Shown: positions 11,401-60,580, counted from the stretch's first letter. The stretch is DNA of 64,000 nucleotides from Candidatus Multivoradales bacterium (GCA_965248925.1 CBDFLE010000006.1:4768001-4832000), one strand, 5' to 3'. Notes: generated by a model not told the origin, from the letters alone. Numbers and translations are program-made.

Positions 11401-11588
11401 CGTACACGCCGCTCCTTCGTAACGCTGTTCGTAAGGCAGAACGTATTATCGTCTGATTATCGTCTGACGGGCAGCATAGCAAGTGACGGGCTCGGTTCGA
11501 TCGCCGGGAGACTGGCGAAGACAGTCGCGGCCGGTTCAGGGTATGCTGTCGGAATCAAAAAGGTGCGGTTCGGGGCGTTGGGGACACC

Positions 11589-12524: not shown

Positions 12525-12594
12525 AATGTTGGTTCTAGTATGATCTGGGGTCAGGGGACCCGAGGCGTAAGGGAATGCCAGCGAGCGAACAACT

Positions 12595-40212: not shown

Positions 40213-40505
40213 GCGGCGGAGGATATCGCGAATCTGAGATGAGTCCCGATATGCCGTGCGGGATCGTCAGCCGATTTTGCTGACTGCGAGCCGAGCACGC
40301 TGGCTGGTTGTCAAGATGACGGGGATTCCGCTACAGTAGGGTTTCCAACTATTTGGTTGAGAAGGAATGAACAGCGGCGCGGGGGGCCTCGGCCGGTTAA
40401 TCGGCGAGTCCTGAGCGCATTCGGGCGGCTTCTGCGCTGTAGAAAATGGACTGATGTATCTCTGGAGTGACAACTGCTAACTCGTCTACCTGGGGGAGAC
40501 GCCAA

Positions 40506-42959
40506 GTGGCCAAGAAAGTATTTCTCAGTTACAGCCATCGAGATCACAAGCTACGCGACCAACTGCTGCGCTTTCTGCGGCCGTTGGAACGCGGCCAGCA
40601 AGTGAGTTATTGGGACGACACTCGGATCGAGACCGGTGAGATCTGGGCAGACGAGATCAACGAAGCCCTCGAAGAAGCGGGGGCGGTGGTGCTGTTGATC
40701 ACCCAAGATTTTCTTGATTCCGATTTCATTGCCGAGCGCGAGTTACCGCGCATTCTGGCGCGAGCCGAGCTTGGCGAACTCACCGTGTTGCCGGTATTTG
40801 CCGGTCATTCGATCGTCGACTTGGTGGAGTACGCTTTTGTTCATCCCGACACTGCGGAGCGACGTCAGGTCAACTTGAGCCGGTTTCAGGGTTACGGCTC
40901 GCCGGACAAACCGTTGGATCGTTGGCCGGCGCGCGAGCGTGCCTTCGTCAAGCTAGCGGGGCGGCTGGCGGCGTTGCTCGGCGATGAATCGGCGGCAGCA
41001 CGGCGCAGCGTGCCGCGGCGGCCGAGGTTGGAATCCCGGATTGAGGCCGATGAGGTCGAGAGTCACTATCAGCTCACTGTCCAGTTGGAACGTGACGGTG
41101 ACGAGGTAGTCAGTCACTATCACTTGCCTGGTGGCGAGCCGATCGGCCCCTACCGCCGGCCGATGCCGGCGGCGCTGGCCGATGCTCATCTGGCGCTCGA
41201 TCGTGCCGAGCCCGCCGCCTTGGAGCGGTGGATCGACAAGGCTCCCGACACCTTGGGCCCGGCCCTCTTCGAATTGCTCTTCGGTGGCAAGGGCGACTGG
41301 CAGCCAATTTTGCGAACGGTTTTCGGCGCCGTCGAGGGCGCCGCCGGGCCGCTCTCTATCCTGGCGCCTTTGCGGTTGCGTATCGCCAGCGCCGACGGCG
41401 ACTTTCTCGCCTTACCGTGGTCGCTCACCTGCTGGGAACAGCATCTGCTGATCGACGATGGCTGGACTTTCTGCACCACCGATCTGCTGGAGCCGACCCT
41501 CGATCTGGCGACCCCGACCCCGGCGCCTTTCTTGATCATCACCCCCCCTCCCGCCACCGGCGCAGTGGCGCTCGATGGCCACCTGGCGGCGTTGCGCGAT
41601 ACCTTGGAACAGGTCTGGCCACGGGGTGAAGAGCTGCCTATCCGGCTCGCCCATTCGCCAGCGGAGGTCGAGCGGGCGTTGGGCGAATTCAAGCCACGGA
41701 TCATCTATCTCCTCGGCGAGTTGGTGGTTCATCGGGGCCGCCCAGGTCTCAAGCTGGGAGGCCGCAAGGTACTACGACTGGTCGACTTGGCGAAGCGCCT
41801 CGGGGGGGCTGCTGGCGGCCCCCAGGCGGTTTTTCTCAACACTCACGGCTTCGTCCGCCCGCCCGCCCCGGCGCAGATCTTCGGCCGCGAGCTACCCCTG
41901 CTGGTGTGGCGCCGCCTGGCCGCTTGGAATGGGCATACCTCACATAGTGCCATCGCCTGGTTACGGGCCTGGCTCGGTGCTGGGGCGGATCCGGTAAAAG
42001 CCCTAGCCGACCTTGCCACCAGGGAACTCAACCCAGAACTTACCGGCCTGTTGATCCATGCCAACTACCGTAGTTGGAAGACCCACCTCTATCTGCCGCC
42101 AGCGCGGCTGCGCGTGGCGCATTTGCTGCTCGATCGGCGGATTCCCAAGGCGATCGTCAACCGGGAAATCACCGAGCTGGTGCGCTCGGATAGCCGGCGC
42201 GTGTTGGCCCTGGTGGCCTATGGCGACCCCGGCACCGGGGTCGAGCTGCACTGGGAGCAGCTGCAGCACGATCTTGACCTGGAAGCCAAGAATGTCGAGA
42301 TCGACTTCCACCAGTTATCGATTCCTGAAGAGCGGCCGGCCGCGGCCGATGCGATGCAGCGCAGTTTGGAGGAAGCCCTGGCCCTAGATCTGGATGCTCT
42401 GCCGGGAGAAGGCCCGCGCGATCTGTTGCTCCGCCGCGCGCCCCGCGCGGTGGGCGATGACAAAGCGGTGCTGTGGCTGGTCTGGGGGACCTTTGGTCAT
42501 GGTGACGAGCATCAGCCACCGCTCAAGCCGCAGCAGCTTGAGGCCTGGCTGCGTTTCGTGGCCGAGTACCTGGGCCACTACTGCCCGGCCACTCTGCGGG
42601 TGGTGTGCTTTTTGGCACTGGAGGTCGATAGCCGGGGCAGAAAACGCTTGCAAACAGCTCTCGGCGAGCTGCGCCGCCGGCCTTGGGCGAAGAGCCGCGA
42701 CTTCCGTTTTGGCAACGCTTTGGCTTTGAGCACGGTGCCCGAAGATGAGTTGCAAGATTTTCTCAAAGATTCGCGCAACTCCACCTGCCCCGAACATTTG
42801 GCAGTGGAAGCCGCGCAGCTGATCCACCGAGACAGTGGCGGTCACTTCAAAGCTACCGTAGCGCTGATCGAGGAAGCGGAGAAGGGCTCCTGGCTTGCCC
42901 TGCTCGATCGACTGCGCGGCAGCGAGACCATCGTCGAACTCGACGATGAGGCATTCTGA
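40506..42959 (+). CDS. TIR + inactive CHAT-like + inactive STAND (iSTAND) protein, third component of a MoxR-vWA ternary conflict system
   Basis: TIR 'KVFLSYSHRD...WDDTRIETGEIW...FLDSDFIAERELP'; CHAT-like 'LALPW'; degenerate P-loop 'YGDPGTGVE'; GTG 40506 follows GGGGAG. Confidence 0.75.
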   Translation: MAKKVFLSYSHRDHKLRDQLLRFLRPLERGQQVSYWDDTRIETGEIWADEINEALEEAGAVVLLITQDFLDSDFIAERELPRILARAELGELTVLPVFAGHSIVDLVEYAFVHPDTAERRQVNLSRFQGYGSPDKPLDRWPARERAFVKLAGRLAALLGDESAAARRSVPRRPRLESRIEADEVESHYQLTVQLERDGDEVVSHYHLPGGEPIGPYRRPMPAALADAHLALDRAEPAALERWIDKAPDTLGPALFELLFGGKGDWQPILRTVFGAVEGAAGPLSILAPLRLRIASADGDFLALPWSLTCWEQHLLIDDGWTFCTTDLLEPTLDLATPTPAPFLIITPPPATGAVALDGHLAALRDTLEQVWPRGEELPIRLAHSPAEVERALGEFKPRIIYLLGELVVHRGRPGLKLGGRKVLRLVDLAKRLGGAAGGPQAVFLNTHGFVRPPAPAQIFGRELPLLVWRRLAAWNGHTSHSAIAWLRAWLGAGADPVKALADLATRELNPELTGLLIHANYRSWKTHLYLPPARLRVAHLLLDRRIPKAIVNREITELVRSDSRRVLALVAYGDPGTGVELHWEQLQHDLDLEAKNVEIDFHQLSIPEERPAAADAMQRSLEEALALDLDALPGEGPRDLLLRRAPRAVGDDKAVLWLVWGTFGHGDEHQPPLKPQQLEAWLRFVAEYLGHYCPATLRVVCFLALEVDSRGRKRLQTALGELRRRPWAKSRDFRFGNALALSTVPEDELQDFLKDSRNSTCPEHLAVEAAQLIHRDSGGHFKATVALIEEAEKGSWLALLDRLRGSETIVELDDEAF

Positions 42960-43013
42960 TGCCACTGCGAGCGGCTCCAAGACCAGTGGTAGCCTCTACG
43001 GCGGAAGCAAACT

Positions 43014-43970
<957 letters not shown>

Positions 43971-43982
43971 GGCCCTGGTCCA

Positions 43983-46823
43983 ATGCTCGATGCCGCCGGC
44001 TTCGACCGCCTGTTGAGTGCCCTGCGGGGCGCCGGCTTGCGGATTGGGGTGGCCGAGGTCGAGCGCCTGCACCGGGTCTTCGAGCTGCGGCCAGCCGGCT
44101 TGGCCGAGCCTGGGCGCTTGGCCTCGTTGCTCGCCGCCGTGGTGGCTAAGTCGGTGGCCGAACGGCGCACGGTGGAGCGTCTCACCGCCAGCTTTCTGGA
44201 TCAGCAGTTGGCCAGCCGTGGGGCTACTCCACGGTTTGGCAAGGGGCGTGGCGAGGAGCGCTCAAGGGCCGCTTGGTGGACCGCGAGACGGCATCTGGGG
44301 TGGTCTCTGCTGGTCGTCGCTGCCTTGGCCATTCTGGTTCCTGAAGTGGTCTATCGGTGGGCTGGCCGACCAACGCCGATTCCTGTGACTCGGGCGAGTC
44401 AAGAGCGGCGTCTTTTGAAGCCCGAGCCAGTTGGCCAGCCTTCTCCGATCCGGTCCACGGAAGACGAGGATTGGCGCAACCCGCCCTTTCCGCAAGACCC
44501 ACCAGGCCCCGACCCCTACCGGCCCCAGGCATACTGGGTCGGTGTGGTGTTGGCCACTCTCGGTGGCGCCGCGTCGCTGGCGTTGCTGGCCTACTTCTAC
44601 CGGCGTCGGGGCCTGCCGGCGGTGCCCGAGTTGGTGCTGCGGCGGGGGCCGAGCCAGGTCTATCTCACGGCGGTCGAGTCCACTTGCCACGAGCTTTTGT
44701 CGGCCGATGCCGAGGATGCCCTGGTCTGGGGGGTCGACCGCTACGTCAGCGAGCAACCCACCCGGCGGCTCGACCTCGATGCCACGGTCGAGGCCACCGC
44801 CCGCGATGCCGGCCTGCCGCGGCTGATTTTCGAGCGGGCGAGCTATCCGCGGGAGGTTTGGCTGTGGCTTGACGAGGCCGCCGGCAGGCCGGAGATCGAG
44901 CGCTTGGCGGCTGAGATCGAGAGTTCCCTGCGTGCCCATGGTCTGCCGGTGGAGCGGGCTACCTTCCGCGGCTTACCCGAACGTCTGCTGGCCGACGATG
45001 GCCGGCTCTTTGCCCCCCGCGATGTCGACGACCGCCGTGACACCGCCTGGGTGGCGGTGCTGACTGACGGCCGGGTGCTGATGCGGCGTTGGGCGGCCGA
45101 TGACCAACGTGCCTCAATCGAGGCTCTGCTGCGCACCCTGGCGGGCTGGCCTCGCCTGGCCTGGGTCGACTTTTCGACCTCGGGCGATGCCCTCGCACCG
45201 CTCACCGATCGCCACTCCCTGCGGCACTTGCAGCCCGAGCAGCTCGCCCACTACCTGGGTGGCGCCGCGCGGCCGGCGCAGCCTGCTGCCATGGCCGCCG
45301 CCGAGCGCGCCTGGGCCGCTGCCACCGCCGTGCCGGCCTCGCCAGTGCCGGTGGCGACCGCTCTGGAGCTACGCCGCCACCTCGGCTTGCCGCCCTCGCC
45401 AAGGGCTCTCGCCGAGCTGCGCGCCGCCGCCCCCGGCCCCCCCGGCCGGCTGGCCTTCTCGTCCAAGCGCCGTGCCAGCTTGCTCGGCTGGCTGGGTCGG
45501 TCCGAGCTGCTCGACCGTCAGGACAACGGCCTTCTGCGGCAATCCCTCGACTTCTGGCGCCACCAGTATGACGGCGAAGCTGCCCGCCGCCAGCAGGCCG
45601 CCGGCTTGCAGATCTGGCAAGACACCCCCTCCGAGCTACGCCTGCGGGCTGAGCGCGCCCTGCTCGATCTGTGGCACCGCCCCGCCGTGGCGGTGGAGCA
45701 GCTCCACGACCTCTACCAGGCCCCCACTCGTGCCTTCATCGAGGGTCAGCTGGCGCTCTATGCCCCCCGTGGCGTGGGCCGTGCCAACGGGCAAGTACCC
45801 CTGCCCTGGCACTGGCGTGATCAGCCCGATCTCGACCGAGCCCGCTGGCAGGAGATGGGCCTCGGCGGCCGCCTGCCTGCCGAGCGCTTGCGCCGCCCCG
45901 GGCGCCTGTGGTTGGCTGCAGCGCTGTGCCTGGGTCTGGGTGTGGTGGGTGGTTCGCAGGCCTGGGAGAAGCGCGGCGAGCTGCGCAGCTACCTGGGTGG
46001 TGTAGAGCTGGTTCATGTTCCGGGCGGTAGCTTCCAAATGGGCACGAGTAAGGAAGACGATCGAGGAGATGATGACGAGCGCCCGCCGCATGAGGTCACC
46101 CTTGAGGAGTTCTGGATCATGCCCTACGAGGCTACCTGGGGCGATCTGCGGCGTGCTCTCACAGCAGAACCTCTGTTGGGCGATCACTTGAGGGAATTCA
46201 CGCGGGTGCTAAGTGCAGCCGTGCGCGAGAGGGTTGCCAGCGAAGATCTCTCCGACTTGGCGAACTACTTGGATTGGCCTTATCGAGATCTCGACTGGCG
46301 AGACAAGGATGAGAAACAGCCGATTGCAGGCGTTTCCTGGCCTGAAGCCCTTGCGATCTGCCAAGCATTGGGGATGCGTCTGCCCACTGAGGCAGAGTGG
46401 GAGTTCGCTTGTCGGGCGAACACAGAGACCGCCTGGTCTTTCGGCGACAAGTCTGAAATAGCAGCAGAATTTGCGGTATTCAACCCTGACCCCTTGGACC
46501 TGCTCGATGGGGAGACTGTAGGGAAGTTCTTCGCTGAGCACAGTCCGTCCCGAGTTGGCAGCAAGCGGGCCAACCCCTGGGGCCTGTACGACTTGCACGG
46601 CAACCTTTTGGAGTGGGTGTGGGATTGGTACGGTGATTACAGCGAAGGCGCTCCACCGAATCCGATAGGCCCTGAAGAAGGCGACTTCCGAGTGCTGCGC
46701 GGGGGCTCGTTCATCGACCCGGCCCAGAACCTGCGCTCCGCGTACCGGCTCAGGTACAGGCCCGGGTTCCGGGACAGGTTCATCGGCTTTCGCTGTGTTC
46801 GATCCCCCCGCCGCCAGCGTTGA
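43983..46823 (+). CDS. DGR target 1: membrane-anchored vWA-like domain + C-terminal CLec (FGE/SUMF1-fold) domain
   Basis: vWA-associated 'LDLDATVEATA...VWLWLD...VAVLTDG'; 3 predicted TMs; FGE motifs RLPTEAEWEFACR, NPWGLYDLHGN, RVLRGGS, GFRC; carries VR1. Confidence 0.9.
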   Translation: MLDAAGFDRLLSALRGAGLRIGVAEVERLHRVFELRPAGLAEPGRLASLLAAVVAKSVAERRTVERLTASFLDQQLASRGATPRFGKGRGEERSRAAWWTARRHLGWSLLVVAALAILVPEVVYRWAGRPTPIPVTRASQERRLLKPEPVGQPSPIRSTEDEDWRNPPFPQDPPGPDPYRPQAYWVGVVLATLGGAASLALLAYFYRRRGLPAVPELVLRRGPSQVYLTAVESTCHELLSADAEDALVWGVDRYVSEQPTRRLDLDATVEATARDAGLPRLIFERASYPREVWLWLDEAAGRPEIERLAAEIESSLRAHGLPVERATFRGLPERLLADDGRLFAPRDVDDRRDTAWVAVLTDGRVLMRRWAADDQRASIEALLRTLAGWPRLAWVDFSTSGDALAPLTDRHSLRHLQPEQLAHYLGGAARPAQPAAMAAAERAWAAATAVPASPVPVATALELRRHLGLPPSPRALAELRAAAPGPPGRLAFSSKRRASLLGWLGRSELLDRQDNGLLRQSLDFWRHQYDGEAARRQQAAGLQIWQDTPSELRLRAERALLDLWHRPAVAVEQLHDLYQAPTRAFIEGQLALYAPRGVGRANGQVPLPWHWRDQPDLDRARWQEMGLGGRLPAERLRRPGRLWLAAALCLGLGVVGGSQAWEKRGELRSYLGGVELVHVPGGSFQMGTSKEDDRGDDDERPPHEVTLEEFWIMPYEATWGDLRRALTAEPLLGDHLREFTRVLSAAVRERVASEDLSDLANYLDWPYRDLDWRDKDEKQPIAGVSWPEALAICQALGMRLPTEAEWEFACRANTETAWSFGDKSEIAAEFAVFNPDPLDLLDGETVGKFFAEHSPSRVGSKRANPWGLYDLHGNLLEWVWDWYGDYSEGAPPNPIGPEEGDFRVLRGGSFIDPAQNLRSAYRLRYRPGFRDRFIGFRCVRSPRRQR
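46692..46820 (+). repeat. DGR variable repeat VR1
   Basis: 129 nt, ungapped against the TR; 13 mismatches, all at TR adenines. Confidence 0.97.
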
Positions 46824-46863
46824 TCCTTGTTTTTTGACCCTTGATGCCTTGCTCTCTGCCTTC

Positions 46864-46888
46864 CGCGGCCCTGCGCAGCAGGGTCGCG
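46864..46888 (+). promoter_or_regulatory. Candidate DGR homing hairpin/cruciform downstream of VR1
   Basis: CGCGGCCCTGC-GCA-GCAGGGTCGCG: 11-bp stem with one G.T and a 3-nt loop, 40 nt past the stop. Confidence 0.65.
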
Positions 46889-46959
46889 CGAATTTCGAAA
46901 ACAATCCCAGTTTCCTGACAAAGTAGCGGTTGAGATTCGCACTATGTTAGGAATCGGCC

Positions 46960-47517
46960 ATGCGATTGAGCCTCGATGAAGCCGCCACCCGACTGGGCAA
47001 GACTACCCATCAGCTGCGCTATCTGATCAAGACCGGGCGCCTACAGGCGAGCAAGGTAGCGGGCCGTTGGCAGCTCGAATCCTCTGCGCTGCCGCTCAGT
47101 GAAGGCCAGCAGAAGGCTGTCGCCCGCCGCCAGCGGCAGCTGCGGGCGGCGGTGGAGGAGGGGCTCGGGCTGGCCGGCAGCGAACGCCCGCCGCGCTACT
47201 CGGTGCGCGATCTGAAGGCCTTTCAGATCGCTCTGCCAGTGTACGACAAAGCTCGGAGCGCGCTGGGTGGGGAGCATCCGGCGGTGGTCTCGCTGCGCCA
47301 GGTGCTGGTGCTGCTGTCGCGGGGCTGCCACCGCTACGATCGTGCCGACAAGGCCGAGGCCTACCGCCAGGCTCGCGACGCCGCCAGCCTGGCGGTGTGC
47401 GAGCTGCTGCTGGCCGAAGCGTCGGTCGGTGCCGCGTTGGTACAGCAGATCGAGCAGGAGCTGATGGCCGCTTTCGCCGGCCTGCTGCGGCGCTGTGAGG
47501 CGAAGCGCTCCCGGTGA
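46960..47517 (+). CDS. Excisionase/MerR-like HTH fused to a four-helix-bundle domain (DGR accessory)
   Basis: 'LSLDEAATRLGKTTHQLRYLIKTGRLQASKVAGRW'; C-half 'RDLKAFQIA...DKAEAYRQAR'; GTGA overlap with avd. Confidence 0.65.
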   Translation: MRLSLDEAATRLGKTTHQLRYLIKTGRLQASKVAGRWQLESSALPLSEGQQKAVARRQRQLRAAVEEGLGLAGSERPPRYSVRDLKAFQIALPVYDKARSALGGEHPAVVSLRQVLVLLSRGCHRYDRADKAEAYRQARDAASLAVCELLLAEASVGAALVQQIEQELMAAFAGLLRRCEAKRSR

Positions 47518-47843
47518 GCTGCCGCGCGCCTCTCTACACTGACGCTTTCGAGCTTGCCCGCTGGCTGGCCAAACACTTCGCTGACGATCCGCGGCCGCTC
47601 GCCCGCCGCATCTGCCACACCAGCTTGGACTTGCTCGAAGCAGTGACTCTGGCGCTCGGCCGGCAACAGCGCGAAGAGCGGGTCGAGCAAGCTGACGAAA
47701 GCCTCGCCAAGCTGCGCACCCAGCTGCGCCTGGCGGCCGAGCTGGGTGCTCTGTCTGATCGCCAACTGCTCCACGCCCTGGGCTTGGCCGATACTATCGG
47801 CCGCCAGCTCGGCGGCTGGCTGCGCTCGATGGGGCCAGTGTGA
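47514..47843 (+). CDS. avd: DGR accessory variability determinant
   Basis: 109 aa, helical; 'LRTQLRLAAEL' and 'IGRQLGGW' motifs; directly upstream of the TR. Confidence 0.88.
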   Translation: MSCRAPLYTDAFELARWLAKHFADDPRPLARRICHTSLDLLEAVTLALGRQQREERVEQADESLAKLRTQLRLAAELGALSDRQLLHALGLADTIGRQLGGWLRSMGPV

Positions 47844-47903
47844 AGGCCGCTGTGAAAAGCGTTGTAAGATCCCTGCGCCGCGCCCGAACAACGCTTTCGA
47901 CCC

Positions 47904-48032
47904 GTGCTGCGCGGGGGCTCGTTCATCAACCCGGCCCAGAACCTGCGCTCCGCGAACCGGAACAGGAACAGGCCCGAGAACCGGAACAGGAACATCGGCT
48001 TTCGCTGTGTTCGATCCCCCCGCCGCCAACAT
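47904..48032 (+). repeat. DGR template repeat (TR), non-coding RNA template
   Basis: Between avd and RT; 27 adenines, 8 in-frame AAC codons; differs from both VRs only at A. Confidence 0.97.
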
Positions 48033-48150
48033 GCCGCCGGCAGGGCGCCATGCAGGGCGCGGCCGGGGCCTGGCCCCGAAACACCCGGCCCGCCCGCACC
48101 AGTAGTCCCTGGCGACCGTCCGGGCGGGCCATCTTCTCTGGGGACTAGGA

Positions 48151-49140
48151 ATGCGCTCAGTGGCGGTCGGATCGTTTGCACGGCTGAGCGATGTCGCTGC
48201 GCTGTGGAAGGCTTGGCGCCGTTGCCGTCGAGGCAAGCGGCGCCAGCCGCGAGTGGCGGCTTTTGACCTCGATGTGGACCGTCACATCTTCAGCCTTCAC
48301 CGGCAGTTGCGCCGCGGTGGCTGGTGGCCGCGGCCTTTCCGCTTGCAGGTAGTGCAAGATCCAAAGACCCGACTGGTGGCGGCACCGGCGCTTCAAGATC
48401 GCATCGTCCAAGATTCTCTGCTAGCCGAGATCGGGCCGACCTACGAGCGTTCCTTCGTCGACCAGAGCTTCGCTTGCCGCACCGGCCGCGGGCCGCAGCG
48501 GGCGGCGCTGGCTTACTTGAAAGCAATGCGCACCCACCGTTTTCGGATGATCCTCGATGTGCGGCGATACTTCGCTTCGATTGACCATGCGATCTTGCTG
48601 CGACTGTTGGCCCGTCGGCTGCGCGATGCTGACACAGTGGAGCTGCTGCGACGGATGCTCGAAGCCGGGGGGCGGGTCTACCACACCGCCCTGGCCAAGC
48701 GAGTGCTGGGGTTGGAAGGAGAGCCATTGCCGCTGGGGTGTGGGCTGCCGCTGGGCTCACACCTGAGCCATTGGTCGGGTGGCCTCTACCTCGACGGACT
48801 CGATCACCATGTGTTGCGCCAGCTACGGCCGGGGGCCTACCTGCGCTACATGGACGACATGGCGCTATTCGCCAACTCGCGCGGTGAGCTCGAAGACCTG
48901 CGCGTGGCGATCAGCGACTGGCTGTGGCAGCAGCGCGGCTTGCGGCTGAAACGCTCCGGCGACAGCGTGCGGCCGACCAGCGAGGCCGCCACCTACCTGG
49001 GCTGGCGGCTCAGCCGTGCCGGCGTGCTGCCAGGACCCAAGGCCAAGCGGCGGCTGCGCGAGAGGTTGCGAACCGCTCAGGACCCGAGGCGGTTAGCGCG
49101 GCAGCTGCGGTCCTACCGTGGGCTTTTGTTGACAATTTAA
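48151..49140 (+). CDS. DGR reverse transcriptase
   Basis: 'DPKTRLVAAPALQDRIVQ', 'SFACRTGRG', 'LDVRRYFASIDH', 'GLPLGSHLSH', catalytic YMDD, 'YLGW'; no maturase/endonuclease tail. Confidence 0.95.
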   Translation: MRSVAVGSFARLSDVAALWKAWRRCRRGKRRQPRVAAFDLDVDRHIFSLHRQLRRGGWWPRPFRLQVVQDPKTRLVAAPALQDRIVQDSLLAEIGPTYERSFVDQSFACRTGRGPQRAALAYLKAMRTHRFRMILDVRRYFASIDHAILLRLLARRLRDADTVELLRRMLEAGGRVYHTALAKRVLGLEGEPLPLGCGLPLGSHLSHWSGGLYLDGLDHHVLRQLRPGAYLRYMDDMALFANSRGELEDLRVAISDWLWQQRGLRLKRSGDSVRPTSEAATYLGWRLSRAGVLPGPKAKRRLRERLRTAQDPRRLARQLRSYRGLLLTI

Positions 49141-49267
49141 GAAGATTTACCAGCTTGTCAGCAAAATTTTCAAAAAAGTTTCCAAACAGATGGGGAATTT
49201 CTTCAATCTTGCCGGCAAATTGTCACCTGTTCTGTCAGCTACTAGACAAAGTTCAAAGGGACAAGGA

Positions 49268-50311
49268 TCAAGGCTGGCGGCGGGGGGATCGAACACAGCG
49301 AAAGCCGATGAGCCAGTCCCGGAACTCGGGCCCGCCCCTGAACCGGATCGCGGAGCGCAGGAGCTGGGCCGGGTCGAAGAACGAGCCCCCGCGCAGCACT
49401 CGGGACTTGCCTTCGTCGGGACCACTCGGGTCTTCCCGAGCTTCAGCGCTGTACTCGCCGTACCAATCCCAGACCCACTCCCAGACGTTGCCGTGCATGT
49501 CGTAGAGAGCCCAGGGATTGGGCTTCTTGGTCCCGACCGGCTGTGGCGCATTGTCCGAGTTGTCGGTGTACCAGGCGTATTTGCCGAGCTTTTCGGAGTT
49601 ATCGCCAAAGGACCACGGCGTCTCGGTGCCGGCCCGGCAGGCATACTCCCACTCTGCCTCGCTGGGCAGGCGGAAACCGTCCGCATCGCGCTGCCACTGG
49701 GGAGGCTGGTCGCCTTCGAGCAGGTAGGCCGGTTGCAGGCGGTGGAGCTTCGACAGCTGGTTGCAAAACTCGGCTGCATCTTCCCAGCTGACCTGGTTCA
49801 CCGGTCGGTCGTCGGCCTCGCCCTCCGGCCAACCGGGGTCTTCTCCGACGACTTTCTGGTAGAGCTGCCGGGTGACCGGCGTGGCCATCATCTCAAAGGC
49901 CGCCAGGGTGACCGGGTGGGCAGGCTTCTCGTCGTCGCGGGCTTGAGGATCGTCGTCGGCCGAGCCCATGGTGAAGCTGCCAGCTGGGATTGGCACCATC
50001 TTCACTTGCAAATCGGCTGGGATCTCGAAATCTGGCGGCTTGTCCTCATCCTCCTCTTCTTCCTCTTGCTCTTCCTCCAACACCGCCACCGGCTCGCTCG
50101 ACCAGGCGAGTAGCGCCGCGGCTGCCACCAGCGCCAGCGCCGTGGCGAAGGCCGCCCACTGCCATGATTCGGCCCAGTGGAGCAGCCAGCTGCCGGCTAA
50201 GCCGCCCAAGGCCAGGCCGAGGGCGATGGCCAGCCAGGTCGGCAGGTAGTCGAGCCGGCGCAGCAGGCCGCGACGGGGAGCGGAAGAGGGACTGGCGGTG
50301 GCGGTGCTCAC
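49268..50311 (-). CDS. DGR target 2: two-TM protein with acidic linker and CLec (FGE/SUMF1-fold) domain
   Basis: FRLPSEAEWEYACR, NPWALYDMHGNVWEW, RVLRGGS, GFRC; carries VR2. Confidence 0.92.
   Translation of the reverse strand: MSTATASPSSAPRRGLLRRLDYLPTWLAIALGLALGGLAGSWLLHWAESWQWAAFATALALVAAAALLAWSSEPVAVLEEEQEEEEEDEDKPPDFEIPADLQVKMVPIPAGSFTMGSADDDPQARDDEKPAHPVTLAAFEMMATPVTRQLYQKVVGEDPGWPEGEADDRPVNQVSWEDAAEFCNQLSKLHRLQPAYLLEGDQPPQWQRDADGFRLPSEAEWEYACRAGTETPWSFGDNSEKLGKYAWYTDNSDNAPQPVGTKKPNPWALYDMHGNVWEWVWDWYGEYSAEAREDPSGPDEGKSRVLRGGSFFDPAQLLRSAIRFRGGPEFRDWLIGFRCVRSPRRQP
49271..49399 (-). repeat. DGR variable repeat VR2
   Basis: Reverse complement aligns ungapped to the TR over 129 nt; 18 mismatches, all at TR adenines. 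Confidence 0.97.
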
Positions 50312-50347
50312 CTGGTCAGCTTATCGCGTGGGCGGGGTGGCCAAGCT

Positions 50348-50520
50348 TCATTGCAAAACGGTGAGGCCCAGGCCGCGGAAATCCTGGTCGAAGGCGAGGC
50401 AGGGCACGCTTTGAAGCGCTGTGGTCACGACAGCGAAGGAGATGGCGTCGCAGAGCGACAGTCGGTGGTCTTTGCCGTAGGCGCGAAAAACCCGTTCGGC
50501 CTCGGCGCGGACGGTTTCGC
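50348..50520 (-). pseudogene. C-terminal remnant of a PIN/VapC toxin
   Basis: 'AERVFRAYGKDHRLSLCDAISFAVV...CLAFDQDFRGLG'; the N-terminal PIN Asp motif is absent. Confidence 0.7.
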
Positions 50521-50559
50521 CGAGATGGGTGCCAGGCAAATAATCTATTGTGGCATATA

Positions 50560-50588
50560 TTGACACAGAAGAGGAAAGCGAACATGCT
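50560..50588 (+). promoter_or_regulatory. Sigma70-type promoter candidate for the TA operon, probably leaderless
   Basis: TTGACA-17 nt-CATGCT, with ATG 50595 seven nt after the -10 box and no RBS in between. Confidence 0.55.
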
Positions 50589-50594
50589 CGCGGT

Positions 50595-50939
50595 ATGGCC
50601 AACCGACAGACTCTGAACGTTTCGCTGCCCCCAGCCCAAGAGCATTTCGTCCGTGATCAAGTCGCGGTGGGCCGCTATCGCACCGCTAGCGAGGTGGTGC
50701 GCCACGGCTTGCGTCTGCTCGAAGAAACCGAGCATCGACGCTTGATGGAGAAGTGGCTCTACAAAGATCTTTCGTCGGACGAGCTGGCGCTGTTGCCGGA
50801 TGAGCACAGGGAACGTGTGCAGGCCCATTTTCGCAGCTTGGTCGAGGATGCAGTCCTGGACATCAAGGGGGGGCACGTTGCCGATGGGCCGAGCGCAGTG
50901 AAGCGGCTGCGGCAGGGTATTGAAGCTCGCCAGAAATGA
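50595..50939 (+). CDS. ParD-like ribbon-helix-helix antitoxin
   Basis: 'TLNVSLP...VAVGRYRTASEVVRHGLRLLEE'. Confidence 0.85.
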   Translation: MANRQTLNVSLPPAQEHFVRDQVAVGRYRTASEVVRHGLRLLEETEHRRLMEKWLYKDLSSDELALLPDEHRERVQAHFRSLVEDAVLDIKGGHVADGPSAVKRLRQGIEARQK

Positions 50940-51241
50940 TCCGCTATCTGCTGACCGCGACTGCCGAGGGCGAGCTCGGTGAGCATCTTCGTTTCATCTC
51001 AGAAGGCAGCGGCAAGACGCGAGCGCTGCACGTTCTCGAAAACTTCGAAGAGGCCTTTGAGAGGATTGCCGCATCGCCTGGGATTGGCTACAGGAGAGAG
51101 CAACTCACCGGCCCGGAGCTGCGCTGGTGGCCGGTCTTCCGCTTCTTGGTTCTTTACGATCCCACATCCAAGCCGTTGACCGTATTGCGGGTCCTGCACG
51201 GCGCGCGTGATCTTGAGCGCATTTTTCAGCTCGATAGCTAG
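50936..51241 (+). CDS. ParE/RelE family toxin
   Basis: 'SPGIGYRREQL...LRWWPV..FLVLYD...VLRVLHGARDL'; ATGA overlap with the antitoxin. Confidence 0.88.
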   Translation: MIRYLLTATAEGELGEHLRFISEGSGKTRALHVLENFEEAFERIAASPGIGYRREQLTGPELRWWPVFRFLVLYDPTSKPLTVLRVLHGARDLERIFQLDS

Positions 51242-51297
51242 TTGAGCTGGTACGACGAGAGTGCGAGCGGCAAGCGGGGAAGGGCGCCTCTCAGCGC

Positions 51298-51333
51298 AAT
51301 ACAAAGCGGGCGCCCCGGCTAGCGGAGCGCCCG
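51298..51333 (-). terminator. Probable intrinsic terminator
   Basis: 11-bp GC stem (51307-51317/51323-51333, one G.U on the minus strand) followed by CTTTGTATT; just past the 51357 stop. Confidence 0.6.
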
Positions 51334-51356
51334 GTTGGGAGGTTCTAGTCGTTACT

Positions 51357-51920
51357 TCAACGCAGCGGGCAGCTGTTGCTGAGCACGCCGATGGCGCTCG
51401 ACTGGCCTTTGCAGGGGCGGGCGATCGACAGCTGCGCCTGGCCGCTCCACAGCACCGAGCCGATGTCGTCGCCGCTCTCATTGTCGCGGGCCGCTTTCGG
51501 CGCGGGGGTGATCTTTACTTGTAGCAGGTCGTCGTCTTGGAGGAAGACCGAAATCGGGTCGCAGAGCAAGGGCGGATCAATGCAGCCCATCGGGATGCCT
51601 TCGAGGGTGACGCAGAGCTTGCCCGGCGGGCAGTTGCAGCCGAAGGCGGCGGTCTGCGGCGGGTAGGCCTGGATGTCGAAATGCTGACGCTCGACTTCTT
51701 GACCATTGACCAGGAAGGAAACGTCAGTCGACAGGTCCACCGGACCGCGGGTCGGGTTGGCGGTGGCCGAGAAGAAGGCGGTCACCATGGTGTTGCCGTC
51801 GGCGGTGGGGGCGGCGGAGATGGCTTCCACCATCCGGTTGACTTCGTTCTTGCTTTGGGCGGCGGCCGGCAGAGTACAGATCAAGGCGATTAGGGCGAGG
51901 ACTAGAATCTGGGTGCGCAT
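51357..51920 (-). CDS. Hypothetical secreted Cys-containing protein, possibly Ig/CARDB-like
   Basis: Signal peptide MRTQILVLALIALICTLPAAA; AAGGA RBS; 'CNCPPGKLC' loop; 'DNESGDD'. Confidence 0.6.
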   Translation of the reverse strand: MRTQILVLALIALICTLPAAAQSKNEVNRMVEAISAAPTADGNTMVTAFFSATANPTRGPVDLSTDVSFLVNGQEVERQHFDIQAYPPQTAAFGCNCPPGKLCVTLEGIPMGCIDPPLLCDPISVFLQDDDLLQVKITPAPKAARDNESGDDIGSVLWSGQAQLSIARPCKGQSSAIGVLSNSCPLR

Positions 51921-52050
51921 GGTTTTGTTCCTTATCCGAAGGGTCGTTGTTTTCGCTGGCACGGCGCGGGCCGTGTCGCTTTCGGGATCAGGAACGAACG
52001 GGGGGTGAGTTTCTCCTCAAAAATTCTCGATATTTCCTGGTGTCGTCTTC

Positions 52051-54858
52051 TCAAACCCGTCGCCGTCTGAGCCACTCACCCAACACCAGCAGTCCGCTCA
52101 GCGCAGCAGCCACCCACCACCAGAGATAAGTCTGCCGGCCACCTGGCAATGGCGTCGTAGCACCATCGCCCAGGGCCACCATGCCGGCCCAGGCGGCGGC
52201 CGGGGCACCGGCTGCGCGGCGGTCGCGCTTGGCCTCGGCGAGGGCGGTGGCGACATCGGCGCCATCCGCTAGGTGGCTGGCGAAGCGTTCCATCAAGCGG
52301 GCGGCTTCGTCGTCGCGCAGTGGCCACAGGCTGGCGACCACAGCTTTAGCGCCGGCTTGGAAGAAGGCGCGGGCGAGGCTCATCGGCCCTTCGCCCTGGA
52401 GCACGGCGCCAGCGCCGGTCTGGCAAGCCGAGAGCACCACCAATTGGTCGGCGAGGGGCAGGCGGTGGATCTCGTGCGGCTGTAGCAAGCCGTCTTCGTC
52501 GTCGCTGCCGGGAGCTAGTAGGACCGCCGACCGCCAGCTGCGTTCGCTGTCGATGATGGCGTGAGCCGCCAGGTGCAGCACCGTGTGTTCGTCGCCAGCG
52601 CTTTTCAGCCGGCTCTCGCTAGCCGCTGCGCCGCGGTGCAGATGGCCGCCGAGAAGGCGGCGGACGGCCCGCCCTTCGTGACCCGCCCAGGGCAGCGGGC
52701 CGAGGGCCAGGCCGCTTTTGAAAAGCGCCCCGCGCTCGCTAGCGACAGCAGTTGCAGGGGCGGCGGCGCTGGGCAATTCAGGGTTGGCCAGCACCAGGGC
52801 GCCGCCGTGCCGTTTGCTGACCGGTCGATCTCTCCACTGCTGCCAAAGGCTGGCCGAAGGCACGATCGACAGGGCGTATTTTTCAACCAACGGCGGTCCC
52901 TCCACCTCGGCTCGTAGGGCGTCGAAAGGCAGCAGGTGGAGAATGCCATCGGGGACGATCACCAGCCGGTTGATGCTGGGCGGTAGCTGGGCTAGGGCAG
53001 CGGCCAGCAGGTCTTGATAGAGGCGCGCCGCTGCTCGCTGCTCGCTGCCGTCGCGGCGCTTGAAGAGGCCACGAAAGAGGGTGATGGCGGGCTCTAGCAC
53101 CGCCCGATCGGGCAGGCGATAGAGCTGCCGGCCGGCGTGGCTGATCACCATCAGCCACGCGCCGCCTGCCTGGTGACCGAAGATGTCTTCCCACAGCCCG
53201 ATCTGGAACGACAGCAGGGCTTCGTCGGGCCGCAGGCTGGTCTCGATGGTGCTGAGTTCAGCCAGCGGTGGTGGCGGCCGTTCGGTGCCTTGCTCGGCTC
53301 TCTGGCGGATGCCGGCTAGCTGACCTTCGACCCGCGCTAGTTCGGCCTCGGTGGTAGCTCGCTGGTTGTTGTCAAGTGGGGTTAGCAGGCGGCGATTGAT
53401 CGCTACTTGCTGTCGTAGCAGCCGTTCTTCGGCTGGGGTCGTCGAGGGTCGTTGCCTTGCCAGGGCCTGGCGCAGCACCCGGCCGCGCATTTGTTCGACC
53501 ACTTGAAAGGCCAGCTCGATATCGTCTTTGCGAGGACTGCCGCCGGGATCGTCGTCGAGCAGGCGGCTGGCAATCCAGCGGTAGGCGTCGGTCCACACGG
53601 CGAGGTAGTTGGCGCGGCCAAAAGTCTCGTCTTGACGATCACTGGTGCCTTCGAGGAGATCGAGCAGGCGCAGGGAATCGGCGATCGCCGCGCTGCGGGG
53701 CAGGGTGGCCCAGCGGACTCGTAGGCGATCGGACCAGGCGTAGGTCTCGATCCGTGGCTGGCCGGAAGAACGGGCCAGGGAGAGGATCTGGTCGATGCGC
53801 GCGGCAGCACCCTCGGGATCGTCGATCAAGGTGTGACTGGCCAGGGCACCAAGACTGTTGGCTAGCAGCAGCGGGTTGCCGAGCCGCCGAGCGATGTCGA
53901 AGGCTTGGTGCAATTGCTCGCTGCCGTCTTGACCCAGCAGTCGGCCGAGGTTCTGGCGGGCAGCAGCTTCGGTCGACTGATCGCCAGCCAAGACCGCTTG
54001 GTCAAGGGCGCGGTGCAGGGCCCGCTCAGCCAGCGGTCCATCGGCCGGGATCTGGCGCTCGGCGATTTGTACTAGGGCCAAGTCGAGCAGCGCGGTAGCT
54101 TCGGCAGTCGGGTCTTCGGCACCCTTGGCCGCGCCGGCCAGGCGCTCAAAGGACAGCCGCGCGCGGTGGTAGCGCCCGAGGCTGAAGTCGACCTCGCCTA
54201 GAGCTAGCAGGACATCGCGCTCCAGGGAGTAGACGGTGAGTTCGGCGGCGATGCTTTGGGCTTCTTCGAGTAGCCGCCGGGCGCGCCCAAGATCACCGTC
54301 GTGGCCGGTCAGCAATCTTGCCTCTTGTACTTTGATCGCGCCGATCAGTTCGGCGGTAGCGGCGAGTTTGGCGGCGTCGGTGGCGCGGCGAAGCTGGTCG
54401 AGGGCGGCCAATCGATCGCCGTGGGCATGCAACATCCGAGAGAGGTTGATGTGACTGTAAGCGGCGCCCAGAGGGTTGCCGCTGGAGGTGAAGGTTTGGG
54501 CGGCCGTGGTGAGGTGCTGCTCGGCATCCGCCTGGCCGAGGTCATTCGCTAGGGCGCCAAGGTAGAAGTGCAGCCAAGGCAGCTGGGGATGGACCGCGAG
54601 GAGGGATTCGAGCTGCTCGGCTGCGGTGGACTTGTCGTTGTCCCTAGCTCGTGCCGCCTGATACAGGCAGTCGCCCACCGCCCGGCCGCCATCGGCTATC
54701 GACAACAGATGGTGACAATCGGACCCCGGTTGGCCGCTAGGAGTCCCCGTCGCTGCTTGGCAGATCATCGCGGCGGCGGTGAGGAACGTCGCCGCCGCAA
54801 CAGAGGAGCGCTCAGCCACCCGAGTTGTCCGGCGGCGGTGGCACCGCTGAGCCGGCAT
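52051..54858 (-). CDS. TPR-like + CHAT (caspase-like) protease with C-terminal membrane anchor (start uncertain)
   Basis: 'IVPDGILHLLPF', catalytic His in 'LHLAAH' and Cys in 'VVLSACQTG', 'SLWPLRD'. Confidence 0.9.
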   Translation of the reverse strand: MPAQRCHRRRTTRVAERSSVAAATFLTAAAMICQAATGTPSGQPGSDCHHLLSIADGGRAVGDCLYQAARARDNDKSTAAEQLESLLAVHPQLPWLHFYLGALANDLGQADAEQHLTTAAQTFTSSGNPLGAAYSHINLSRMLHAHGDRLAALDQLRRATDAAKLAATAELIGAIKVQEARLLTGHDGDLGRARRLLEEAQSIAAELTVYSLERDVLLALGEVDFSLGRYHRARLSFERLAGAAKGAEDPTAEATALLDLALVQIAERQIPADGPLAERALHRALDQAVLAGDQSTEAAARQNLGRLLGQDGSEQLHQAFDIARRLGNPLLLANSLGALASHTLIDDPEGAAARIDQILSLARSSGQPRIETYAWSDRLRVRWATLPRSAAIADSLRLLDLLEGTSDRQDETFGRANYLAVWTDAYRWIASRLLDDDPGGSPRKDDIELAFQVVEQMRGRVLRQALARQRPSTTPAEERLLRQQVAINRRLLTPLDNNQRATTEAELARVEGQLAGIRQRAEQGTERPPPPLAELSTIETSLRPDEALLSFQIGLWEDIFGHQAGGAWLMVISHAGRQLYRLPDRAVLEPAITLFRGLFKRRDGSEQRAAARLYQDLLAAALAQLPPSINRLVIVPDGILHLLPFDALRAEVEGPPLVEKYALSIVPSASLWQQWRDRPVSKRHGGALVLANPELPSAAAPATAVASERGALFKSGLALGPLPWAGHEGRAVRRLLGGHLHRGAAASESRLKSAGDEHTVLHLAAHAIIDSERSWRSAVLLAPGSDDEDGLLQPHEIHRLPLADQLVVLSACQTGAGAVLQGEGPMSLARAFFQAGAKAVVASLWPLRDDEAARLMERFASHLADGADVATALAEAKRDRRAAGAPAAAWAGMVALGDGATTPLPGGRQTYLWWWVAAALSGLLVLGEWLRRRRV

Positions 54859-57753: not shown

Positions 57754-58731
57754 TTGGTGCGGAACCTGCTGACGGCCTTCAAGGGGTTGTTGTCCCGTGA
57801 AGGTCACGTAGTCGACTTCGGACAGCTGATCAAGGGTGTCGCTATGTTTGCGGTTAATTTGGCGGCGCCCGGTGCCGGTGCGGTGGCTGGAGCCGCCGCC
57901 GGGATGGCCGATGCGGTGAGCGGAGCTGCTGGCGACCGCGCCAAGATCTCCTTTCGCCGCCAAGCCAAGCTCGGCGGTTTGACCCGGCCAGTGAAAGAAG
58001 GGGAGCCGGATTTCGAGAGGCTGCGGGAAGCGGTGGACGAGATCCTGCTGGATCTTCGCCGGTTGCAGTGTCCCGTGGTGCTGGTCGATGGGCTCGACAA
58101 GGTGCAGGATCTGAGGGCAATTCGCGACCTCTTCTCCAGCAATCGAATTCTCGCTCTACCGCGAGCACAGGTGGTCTACTCGGGACCGATCACGCTGATG
58201 TTGGCCACCGAGTGGCAAGCCGCCGGCGGAGCCTTCAAACGCGAGCGGCTGACCAACGTTACCGTCCAAGCTCCGGATCTCGATTGGGTTTCTCTGCCCC
58301 AAGAAGTGGTCGAGGAGGGTCAGCGAGCGGTGGCCGATGTAGTTCGGCGGCGGTTGAGCCGTTTACAGTTGGATGAGGAGGACGTCTTCGAGTCCGACTG
58401 CTTGGAGCGCTTGACCCAGGCTTCGGGTGGTCTGCTGCGGGATCTGGTTCACCTGGTCAATCGGGCGATCCGCGACGCTCTCCGGCGATCGGCACTGCGC
58501 ATCGATGTCCGCGCCGCTGAGGCGGCGATCGAGGAGATTCGCAAAGAATACGAGGTGACTCTGAATACCCGCCGGGTCGACGAGCTGCGCCACGTTCGCA
58601 AGACTGGCGAGCCGAGTGGTGCCGAAGGGTCTCTAGAATTGCTCTTGGGGGGCTATGTGCTGCCCTACAGCAATGGCCGGGTTTGGTTCGAGCCCCATCC
58701 GATCCTTCGCGATCTCCGCCCAGGAATCTGA
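57700..58731 (+). pseudogene. 5'-truncated P-loop (AAA/STAND-like) ATPase
   Basis: Walker B 'VVLVDGLDKV', 'SGGLLRDL' and C-term 'WFEPHPIL' are present; no Walker A and no credible start. Confidence 0.65.
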
Positions 58732-58741
58732 AAGCTTTCGC

Positions 58742-60580
58742 ATGACCCCCTCGCCCTCTGCCAGCTCTGCTTGGGACGCGGCTGTTGGCTCGTTGCAACA
58801 GGTGGTTGACCTTGCGGAAGGTCTGGCCCTGGTGCTGGTGTCGGGGCCTGGAACCCATGCTCGCGAAGGGTTGAAACGCCTTCGTGCCGGCCTCACAGAA
58901 GATCCTCGGGCGACCTGGCACCACGTCGACCGGCAAGGTGCGGATCTGGCATCGACGCTGGCGGATTCGGGGGGCCCACGCCTACTGCTGGTTGATGGTC
59001 TGGAACGTCTCGGCGACACCGCTCGCCAAGACCTCACTATCAGGCTGAATCTCCTACGCGACACCCTGAGTACTTTTCCCACCGTCATCATCCTGTGGGT
59101 TCCCAGGGATTTCTTGGAGTCGTTTCGGCAGCTTTGTCCGGATTTGTTTCACTGGCGTTCGTTGTTATTGCTGCTGAGCGCGGAGGACATTCCGCTGCCG
59201 TTAGAGATAGTAGCGCGCCGACGGTTGGCGCAAGCAGTGGAGAGGTACGTCGCCGGTTTGCGGCCAGCGCTCAGCCAAGAGAGGGCGTTGGAATCGGTTT
59301 TGGTCGAGACCCGAGTCGTGGACCAGATTGAGGGTACCGAGTTGCCTTTCTTGGAGTGGGCCGAAGGGGTGCAGCGGGGGCTCTTGTTGGGGCAGCCAGG
59401 AAGTGGGAAAACCACCGCTCTACAGATCTTCGGACGAGATCTTGCTCGCCGAGCTGCTGACAATGCGACGGCACCAGTTCCGATTTTTCTTTCCTGGCGT
59501 CACCTCGTACGCGAGCGGAGGGCAGAACAACCACCAACCATGACCACCCTCATTCCTGGCGAGATGGCGGTCGGCCAACTCGATCAGGAAAAGCGAGAAG
59601 TTCTGGCGTCGGGCAGACTGTGCCTGCTGCTCGACGGGCTCGACGAGGTTCCCGCACCCTTTCGCAACACTTGTCTCGAGTGGTTACGCGTTCAGCTTTC
59701 GGAACGGCCCGACTGGAGCTGCATTGTCACCTCGCGCTGTACCCGCGATTGTGAACTGAGTTTCAGCGACTGGCAGACAGCCCATATGCGGCCCTGGTCC
59801 GCGGCTGATGTAGATGCTTTCTTGCACCGCTTTTTCTCCGGCCTCGAAGGTCGGGCCCGCGAGCTCAGTTCAGCAATTCGTCGCAGCCCAACCCTCCGAG
59901 TCTTTGGCGGCTCACCCTTGCTTCTCTCAGTTCTTGCTGAGTTGAGCCTTCGCTATGGCGCTCTACCTCCGTCGCAGTTTCAGCTGTTCGAGAAAGCCGC
60001 TCAGCTGCATTTGGTGGGCTGGGACCGGGCCAAGGAGCTCGGTCGTCTCCGATCGACGGTTCCACCTTCCCGTTTGCACCGGAACCTTGCCTATCTTGCC
60101 TTGCGAATGCTCCGCGTGGAGCGCCGCGAGGCGTCGATCGGAGAGCTGGCCAATACCAATTTGGCGTTTGAGGATTTTCTTTACCTCGACGAGCGGACAG
60201 GACTGTTCCTGAGGGTCGCAGAGAACAAATTCTCGTTCAGCCATCTAGCCTGGCAGGAGTACTTCGCTGCAAGTGCCCTGAGCGAGGATAGCCCGGAGAG
60301 GGTTCTGGCTGAGCTGCGGCAGCACTTCGATGATCCGGCTTGGCGAAGCGTCATTGTGATGGCAGCTGGAGACTTGACCCGGAATCTGGGCGCAGAGTGG
60401 CTTTGGCAGCAATTTTGGCCCGAGTCAACAGAGTCTTCGGCTCGCGAGCAGATCGAAGATCAGATGACCTTGGTATTGGACATCGCTGCGGAAGCCGGAG
60501 TGAGTGACGGCTACCAGGAGCATCAAGCGGTGCTGAAACGCTTCAGGGAGAACGCCACTGCAAGCCCGGATGCCGGTTGA
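58742..60580 (+). CDS. NACHT NTPase with an N-terminal inactive P-loop domain
   Basis: N-term 'LNLLRD...IILW...PDLFHWRS'; Walker A GQPGSGKTT; Walker B LLLDGLDEV; 'SPLLL'; winged helix 'FSHLAWQEYFAA'. Confidence 0.85.
   Translation: MTPSPSASSAWDAAVGSLQQVVDLAEGLALVLVSGPGTHAREGLKRLRAGLTEDPRATWHHVDRQGADLASTLADSGGPRLLLVDGLERLGDTARQDLTIRLNLLRDTLSTFPTVIILWVPRDFLESFRQLCPDLFHWRSLLLLLSAEDIPLPLEIVARRRLAQAVERYVAGLRPALSQERALESVLVETRVVDQIEGTELPFLEWAEGVQRGLLLGQPGSGKTTALQIFGRDLARRAADNATAPVPIFLSWRHLVRERRAEQPPTMTTLIPGEMAVGQLDQEKREVLASGRLCLLLDGLDEVPAPFRNTCLEWLRVQLSERPDWSCIVTSRCTRDCELSFSDWQTAHMRPWSAADVDAFLHRFFSGLEGRARELSSAIRRSPTLRVFGGSPLLLSVLAELSLRYGALPPSQFQLFEKAAQLHLVGWDRAKELGRLRSTVPPSRLHRNLAYLALRMLRVERREASIGELANTNLAFEDFLYLDERTGLFLRVAENKFSFSHLAWQEYFAASALSEDSPERVLAELRQHFDDPAWRSVIVMAAGDLTRNLGAEWLWQQFWPESTESSAREQIEDQMTLVLDIAAEAGVSDGYQEHQAVLKRFRENATASPDAG

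Follow-up and report, generated by a model that had tools for sequence, protein, structure and literature searches.

A very probably complete diversity-generating retroelement with one template and two opposite-strand lectin-fold targets beside MoxR and TIR genes

The DNA analyzed here is a stretch of 64,000 nt from Candidatus Multivoradales bacterium (GCA_965248925.1, CBDFLE010000006.1:4768001-4832000), referred to below as the window, with positions counted from its first letter; the host assembly has a size of 7.98 Mb. The window contains genes for a helix-turn-helix (HTH) protein and the accessory protein Avd, a template repeat (TR), a spacer and a gene for a reverse transcriptase (RT), in this order and all on the + strand, and this cassette lies between two variable repeats (VRs). 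The VRs form the 3' ends of two paralogous FGE/C-type-lectin genes that converge on the cassette. We read this arrangement as a complete diversity-generating retroelement (DGR) with one adenine-rich template and two lectin-fold targets on opposite strands, and give this reading a probability of about 0.9.

The TR (47904-48032, + strand) has 27 adenines in 129 nt and includes eight in-frame AAC codons. VR1 (46692-46820, + strand) and VR2 (49271-49399, - strand) comprise the last 43 codons of target genes 1 and 2, respectively; one is on each strand, and both are located at most about 1.1-1.25 kb from the TR. The original prediction, made from this DNA alone, had proposed that the TR aligns to both VRs over 129 nt without gaps, with 13 and 18 mismatches restricted to TR adenines, and had named mismatches at other bases as the observation that would tell against it. 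Machine alignment (MAFFT and an ungapped comparison) reproduced this exactly: the three repeats occupy 129 columns with zero gaps, VR1 differs from the TR at 13 positions and VR2 at 18, all 31 of the 31 mismatches sit at TR adenines, and no non-A mismatches were found. The three peptide strings quoted with the prediction were also correct. Twenty of the 27 TR adenines are altered in at least one VR, whereas both VRs agree with the TR at all 102 non-A positions (Fisher p = 1e-25), and the homology to the TR ends abruptly at both borders of each VR. The two VRs differ from each other at 13 positions, all of them A positions. No stop codon can be reached by an A-to-N change at the TR adenines; the eight AAC codons alone allow 15^8 (2.56e9) protein variants, as had been calculated earlier, and about 3.5e14 variants are possible if all 27 A sites are used. 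The whole-genome search for remote targets that had been suggested was run with the TR of the window and yielded no further VR in the 7.98 Mb, the next-best matches being a second DGR with its own TR.

The target genes are paralogous, with inverted homology of 277 nt at 82% identity, and it could be argued that ordinary gene conversion among such segments, with no reverse transcription involved, accounts for the likeness of the three repeats. Gene conversion, however, cannot confine 31 of 31 differences to the adenines of one particular copy (p = 1e-25) and leaves the adjacent RT and Avd genes unexplained, and we regard it as extremely improbable. The region next to the VRs provides an internal control. 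In the 138 nt upstream of the VRs the paralogs differ at 36 positions (26%), compared with 0/102 at the non-A positions of the VRs (p = 2.7e-10), and therefore the TR overwrote both copies after the paralogs had diverged. This supports evolutionarily recent retrohoming, which had been suggested from the lack of non-A drift alone.

The RT gene (48151-49140, + strand) encodes 329 amino acids with a Pfam RVT_1 match (E 3.2e-14), the YxDD box in the form YMDD, and LGSHLSH as motif 4. Its best relative of solved structure is PDB entry 8ub7, a 328-aa reverse transcriptase (E 1e-23) whose IGSLTSQ aligns with LGSHLSH; the search tool names this entry only 'Reverse transcriptase', and we take it to be the enzyme of the Bordetella phage. 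The avd gene (47514-47843, + strand) encodes 109 amino acids and scores 50.6 bits with Pfam bAvd (cut-off 40). In the 118-nt spacer between the TR and the RT gene (48033-48150, + strand), a conserved stem (48087-48096 paired with 48121-48130; GCCCGCCCG/CGGGCGGGC) surrounds a conserved YRGUAG motif and a small hairpin. RNAalifold, applied to 14 of 18 extracted spacers (four were dropped for length or poor alignment), gave 12 pairs, with compensatory changes at six of these. A candidate site of priming is the A of GUAG (48098-48101), presumably analogous to A56 of the BPP-1 spacer (Sp). No Rfam family matched positions 42000-52000 at E up to 1, and a promoter and terminator scan of 46700-49400 returned nothing exceeding shuffled sequences. 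The intact reading frames and the conserved structured spacer are consistent with a real, intact element.

Target gene 1 (43983-46823, + strand; 946 aa) and target gene 2 (49268-50311, - strand; 347 aa) both match Pfam FGE-sulfatase (E 2.1e-48 and 5.7e-57, respectively). Target 2 consists of two N-terminal hydrophobic helices, seen by hydropathy, an acidic linker and the FGE/C-type-lectin domain. Target 1 was modeled with AlphaFold2 (61 sequences, mean pLDDT 82.4). The model has long hydrophobic helices at residues 93-127, 182-207 and 640-667, the first two of which are backed by hydropathy as N-terminal membrane helices, an alpha/beta domain at 232-430 followed by a helical domain, and an FGE/lectin-fold domain at 672-942. 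The best structural match of this C-terminal domain is TvpA of Treponema denticola (2y3c), itself a DGR variable protein (Z 27.8, root-mean-square deviation (rmsd) 2.3 Å, 31% identity, 210 residues aligned), and it also matches Mtd (Z 14.6) and TaqVP (Z 13.2). TvpA is a spirochaete lipoprotein, whereas the domain in the window forms the C-terminal end of a membrane protein of 946 aa with links to MoxR and TIR genes. The earlier proposal of one template serving two separately diversified targets on opposite strands is thus borne out by the RT, by Avd and by the lectin-fold genes that host the VRs.

The element resembles the DGR of BPP-1 (mtd, avd/bbp7, TR, brt) in the order avd, TR, spacer, RT, in the adenine-specific differences, in a VR that closes a lectin-fold gene at its 3' end, and in a GC run common to TR and VR that is followed by a VR-specific stretch and then by a GC-rich hairpin. 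The BPP-1 element differs in having one target on the same strand, in being phage-borne, in diversifying a tail fibre, in having no HTH gene, and in an RT with SQ at the place of SH in the window. If the Bordetella phage model applies, the HTH-avd-TR-spacer-RT operon would be transcribed, a complex of RT and Avd would copy the TR RNA into cDNA with misincorporation opposite template adenines, and the cDNA would take the place of the homologous 129 nt with which either target gene ends.

The 3' borders of the repeats fit this model. The GC-rich CCCCCCGCCGCC is common to the TR and both VRs, after which the flanks part, both VRs going on with TGATCCTTGT; a shared GC run followed by VR-specific sequence is what defines a boundary of the initiation of mutagenic homing (IMH) type, and we regard these borders as putative IMH-type boundaries. 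Directly after VR1, an array of TTG(A) units at heptad spacing (46820-46847, + strand; TTGATCC TTGTTTT TTGACCC TTGATGC) overlaps the stop codon of target 1 and is absent after the TR. The array after VR2 (49244-49271, - strand) begins with TTGATCC TTGTCCC, its further units being slipped by one base. A GC-rich hairpin with an 11-bp stem and a 3-nt loop lies 3' of VR1 (46864-46888, + strand; z -2.0 for the DNA fold of 46801-46920), and similar hairpins were seen 3' of the VRs of relatives.

The host genome contains three DGRs with six targets. The second of them, DGR-B, is located on another contig (L009, G000:C5:138000-154000, 3846-13275) and comprises, in the order seen in the window, a target, HTH, Avd, TR, RT and a convergent target, the two target proteins having the architectures TIR-NACHT-FGE and Metallophos-NACHT-FGE. 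A 1-nt deletion in VR2 of DGR-B causes a frameshift that makes the reading frame about 80 nt longer. In DGR-C (C6:1.66 Mb; L068, G000:C6:1654000-1669000), MoxR, a long FGE target, the RT, the TR and a short FGE target lie in this order on one strand; both VRs show A-biased differences, and there is neither an HTH gene nor a TTGA array. These three DGRs and their six targets support the idea that bacteria of this kind maintain several hypervariable sensors.

Relatives of the RT were found at E up to 1e-30 in 24 of 201 genomes of the same order, and a metagenome scan with the RT of the window retrieved only distant relatives of 23-34% identity. Twenty loci fetched from those 24 genomes and five others made up a set of 25 related loci, 17 of which were screened for repeats. 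Ten of these 17 have one TR and a VR on each strand flanking the cassette, the second VR having drifted in one of them (L053). Six closer RT relatives (50-60% identity), taken from the order of the Competibacteraceae metagenome-assembled genome (MAG) that contains the best named hit, all have an opposite-strand VR pair with A-biased differences. MoxR is present in all six, a homologue of the TIR protein beside MoxR in five, and a homologue of the N-terminal region of target 1 in all; in two (L095 and L097) the positions of the long and the short target are exchanged. With this layout present in ten of the 17 screened loci and in all six closer relatives, the opposite orientation of the two targets is standard for this RT lineage and not unusual. 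More generally, two targets occur in about 13% of 372 surveyed DGRs, and in some DGRs the parts are divided between the strands (PMC5758913); both features are likewise described in PMC10907252, and target recognition in BPP-1 is orientation-independent (PMC3240598).

Three relatives seem to depart from the complete cassette. The Competibacteraceae MAG contig (L010, 10981 nt) contains, in the order of the window, MoxR, a long target, HTH, RT and a convergent short target; Avd and the TR are missing, the gap between HTH and RT is only 67 nt, and there is no TR elsewhere in the genome. Its former VRs are 84% alike and differ mainly at AAC-type positions, so that this locus looks like a recently disarmed DGR. 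In a close relative (L100, 2594-6880), the TR and the RT lie about 3.4 kb apart and the RT is in two pieces (6030-6362 and 6880-7716), and the cassette looks as if it carries an insertion. In the closest genome-held relative (L095, 5590-6648; RT 60% identical), no match to HTH or Avd was obtained in the 1 kb that separates the short target from the TR, a length with room for both.

Five observations weigh against a complete DGR. First, at the 11 positions altered in VR1 as well as VR2, the two have the same base in seven cases and different bases in four, and here selection and partly shared history cannot be told apart. Second, Avd scores 50.3 bits with NCBIfam DivGenRetAVD, for which the cut-off is 80. 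Third, the DGR RT signature [I/V/L]GxxxSQ is kept in the window as LGxxxS, with SH in place of SQ. Fourth, DNA folding did not reveal a convincing hairpin downstream of VR2. Fifth, no direct sign of present activity was seen: contigs of Logan, from four runs of one sample and one study (the only runs listed for this stretch, with no RNA run among them), contain a single sequence per VR. Concerning the third point, SH was found in 82, SQ in 21 and a sequence that does not fit the pattern in 17 of 120 listed sequences (the RT of the window and 119 homologues), and the change from Q to H is clade-wide. The last two residues of the motif vary in 15 of 155 DGR RTs, with SH among the variants, which are recorded in DGRs that look working (Schillinger et al. 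2012, PMC3521204), and the Q187P substitution in bRT left the misincorporation frequency unchanged (PMC7826257).

The fifth point could mean that the element is a frozen relic, active until recently, which has lost homing and whose VRs are now fixed alleles. The contigs from all four runs match VR1, the TR and VR2 with 0 other letters, breaking at the shared 3' part of the repeats, and show no variant rows inside either VR. Decay does occur in the lineage, since the relative L010 keeps the RT, HTH and both targets and has lost Avd and the TR. However, clonality of contigs says little because contigs drop rare variants, and in the window neither target and none of the five cassette parts is disrupted, the fold of the spacer RNA has been retained, and 0/102 non-A differences stand next to sequence that has diverged by 26%. 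We therefore consider a relic unlikely.

The fourth point is related to the possibility that only one of the VRs is an efficient target today, namely VR1 with its full heptad array and hairpin. The two flanks fold differently, the array of VR2 is out of the 7-nt register after two units, and uneven diversification of targets within one DGR is on record (PMC10907252). On the other hand, VR2 has more A substitutions than VR1 (18 and 13, respectively) and no non-A drift, and GC-rich inverted repeats were present in only 34% of surveyed DGRs (PMC5758913). A single efficient VR thus seems rather improbable, slightly less so than a relic, and the complete DGR with two targets remains our preferred reading.

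The TTG(A) arrays are not restricted to the window. They consist of 3-4 units that start with TTG(A), TAGA or CTGA, are 7-8 nt apart, and lie directly 3' of the VRs at the target stop codon or overlapping it. Such arrays were seen in the window, in DGR-B (L009), in related loci (L048-L059, L095-L100) and in BPP-1 (L101, 3438-3470); the sequences of the units vary between loci and the spacing is kept. Within this lineage every VR is followed by such an array, which TRs lack. Pairs of T[TA]G at lag 7 number 47 in 27 VR flanks from 14 loci versus 1.7 ± 1.3 in 1000 shuffles, none of which reached 47, and there are none in 14 TR flanks; these and the following array statistics draw on related loci and, within each locus, on paralogous flanks. 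In 36 VR flanks from 19 loci, the spacing of successive units was 7 nt in 58 cases, 8 nt in 18, 9 nt in seven and 6 nt in three. In a wider set of 37 loci, at least three stop codons chained at 7-8 nt were found in 15 of 60 VR flanks versus 0 of 40 TR flanks. The array is absent from the DGRs of loci named Clostridia, Candidatus Scatosoma, and gut or fermentation metagenomes.

In the host genome as a whole, T[TA]G units occur as triples with a spacing of 7 nt 142 times, which is about the level of control spacings; four of these 142 are located at VR ends of DGR-A, the element of the window, and DGR-B, where 0.0025 would be expected. A four-unit TTG array at 7-nt spacing occurs in the 8-Mb genome only in the VR1 flank of the window. 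The 24 nt that link the GC run of BPP-1 to its hairpin, GTGACCAC CTGATTC TTGAG TAG, include the in-frame stop and three TGA that are out of frame and spaced by 8 and 7 nt; the TR counterpart has none of these TGA. This stretch is the 21-bp part of the IMH that sets the direction of transfer (PMC3240598).

These observations suggest, tentatively and at somewhat less than even odds, that the TTGA/TAGA/CTGA array is the conserved core of the recipient mark, that is, of the VR-specific half of the IMH, from BPP-1 to the DGRs of bacterial conflict systems. The array may be a recognition site for the homing machinery. It may also provide a stop in every frame and so cap frameshifts made by the mutagenic RT: spacings of 7 and 8 nt are not multiples of 3, and thus the stops would fall in every frame. 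All three frames are closed within 30 nt in 15 of 36 VR flanks versus 163 of 4304 stops of long frames in the host genome; indels opposite AAC are on record (PMC5758913), and the deletion in VR2 of DGR-B sits at a TR adenine. The array of the window closes only two of the three frames and some of its units are TTG without the A, which argues that the array is more than a set of stop codons. The recognition and the frame-capping readings are not exclusive. A promoter, to which a -35-like TTGAC might point, is unlikely, as the array also follows the convergent VR2, where it would be directed into the RT gene from its 3' end.

No description of the array was found in the literature on heptamer or tandem repeats with DGRs or the IMH, the supplementary IMH alignments lying outside this search. 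The closest parallel are the TAACTGA heptamers of Beggiatoaceae and some cyanobacteria (PMC4679880), which share tandem 7-nt units, stops in three frames and a frequent overlap with a gene end. They differ in being distributed genome-wide (169 sets in one genome) and mostly upstream of start codons, and no link to DGRs is stated in the part of that report considered here. The array on the VR side offers a concrete candidate, open to mutation, for the signal by which a DGR distinguishes the repeat to be overwritten.

The first gene of the cassette (46960-47517, + strand) encodes an excisionase-family HTH protein of 185 amino acids, and its end overlaps the start of avd by 4 nt. The Pfam HTH_17 match of the protein itself (E 2.5e-4) is below the cut-off; a database search gave 199 hits, including the protein of the window, and PF12728 is precomputed in most of the 120 listed homologues. 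No similarity between the HTH protein and Avd was detected by hhalign (probability 0.3%). The copies of the window, of DGR-B (L009, 7305-7901) and of L010 (4380-4934) are 42-48% identical. An HTH homologue was found just 5' of Avd in 13 of the 25 related loci and in five of the six closer relatives, and the loci with HTH upstream of Avd are those whose RTs are most like that of the window. The targets of these HTH-bearing loci are mostly effector-NACHT-FGE proteins (with TIR, SIR2, Mrr, Metallophos or kinase heads) and not MoxR-linked. Since the HTH gene is kept whatever the type of target, it tracks the Avd-TR-RT core and not the conflict system.

In the loci of 'clade 5A' described by Doré et al. 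2024 (PMC10907252), MoxR lies 5' of a long target with an unassigned extension, and there are a second, short target with CLec only, an HTH gene and nearby TIR or peptidase effectors. The window has the same gene content (MoxR, long and short targets, HTH, TIR) as this clade, including DGR 8 of Thiohalocapsa PB-PSB1. The HTH gene was read there as a stand-in for the VMAP effector, whereas here it travels with Avd-TR-RT whatever the targets, and a role as a regulator or accessory of the cassette would fit better. This lineage-wide gene is a candidate extra component. A bolder corollary of the recipient-mark proposal would be that the excisionase-family HTH protein is a fourth cassette component that acts at the DNA target. 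Direct binding of the HTH protein to the TTGA array is weakened as an idea, as arrays also follow the VRs of cassettes without HTH (L061, L064, L065 and BPP-1). The array and the HTH gene are the most useful new leads and may matter more than the DGR itself; they could aid the engineering of DGRs for targeted diversification.

Upstream of target 1, a gene for an 830-aa protein (40467-42959, + strand) encodes an N-terminal TIR domain (Pfam TIR_2, E 1.4e-11; PADLOC ThsB-like TIR, E 2.6e-20), and a gene for a MoxR-like AAA+ ATPase (43014-43970, + strand; Pfam AAA_5, E 7.8e-14) lies directly 5' of the target. The 830-aa protein is a candidate effector of a MoxR-linked sensor system; TIR_2 was its only Pfam match at E up to 0.001 and TIR chains its only PDB matches, searches that a divergent VMAP region might escape. 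DGR-diversified FGS domains in vWA-MoxR systems have been described (Kaur et al. 2020, PMC7159879). The window shares with the vWA-MoxR-VMAP systems a MoxR gene beside a protein ending in a DGR-diversified FGE/FGS domain and an effector as the third gene, here TIR. It differs from them in that sequence methods find no vWA or VMAP domain, there being only a weak structural resemblance to vWA/MIDAS.

This resemblance concerns the alpha/beta domain in the extension of target 1 (44676-45272 in the window). Its matches are borderline: the vWA domain of NorD in complex with the MoxR-class NorQ (Z 8.3, rmsd 7.2 Å, 183 residues aligned), the MIDAS domain of MDN1 (Z 8.2, rmsd 3.9 Å, 154 aligned) and the vWA domain of CMG2 (Z 8.2, rmsd 3.4 Å, 128 aligned). 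Apart from two unrelated rows with tied Z at ranks 24-25, vWA/MIDAS are the top folds. The vWA-like LTDG end of a strand is kept and the DxSxS motif is absent. No Pfam vWA match was obtained in 47 homologues at E up to 1, and hhalign against 14 VWA_2 domains of the host genome gave a probability of 0.7%, with only the segment LVAILTDG aligned. Whereas the target extension of 'clade 5A' is presented as lacking a known domain in the part of the source considered (PMC10907252), the model of the extension in the window (Z about 8) hints at a cryptic fold of the vWA type, for which sequence methods give no confirmation.

The diversified proteins are thus a large membrane protein encoded behind the TIR and MoxR genes and a small membrane-anchored paralog. 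Their diversified lectin-fold tips most likely would act as a variable sensor of an antigen or ligand that feeds the MoxR/TIR conflict system, as others have proposed for such loci. Where the HTH gene accompanies Avd-TR-RT, the targets are STAND NTPases in 10 loci and MoxR-linked proteins in others. The element adds an example to a described class of DGRs, those by which the sensor tips of conflict systems linked to MoxR or STAND proteins are diversified, and its layout is typical. Beyond target 2, the window contains a ParD/ParE pair (50550-51241), a 935-aa TPR-CHAT protein (52051-54858) and a NACHT protein (58655-60580), and the neighborhood as a whole looks like a defence island.

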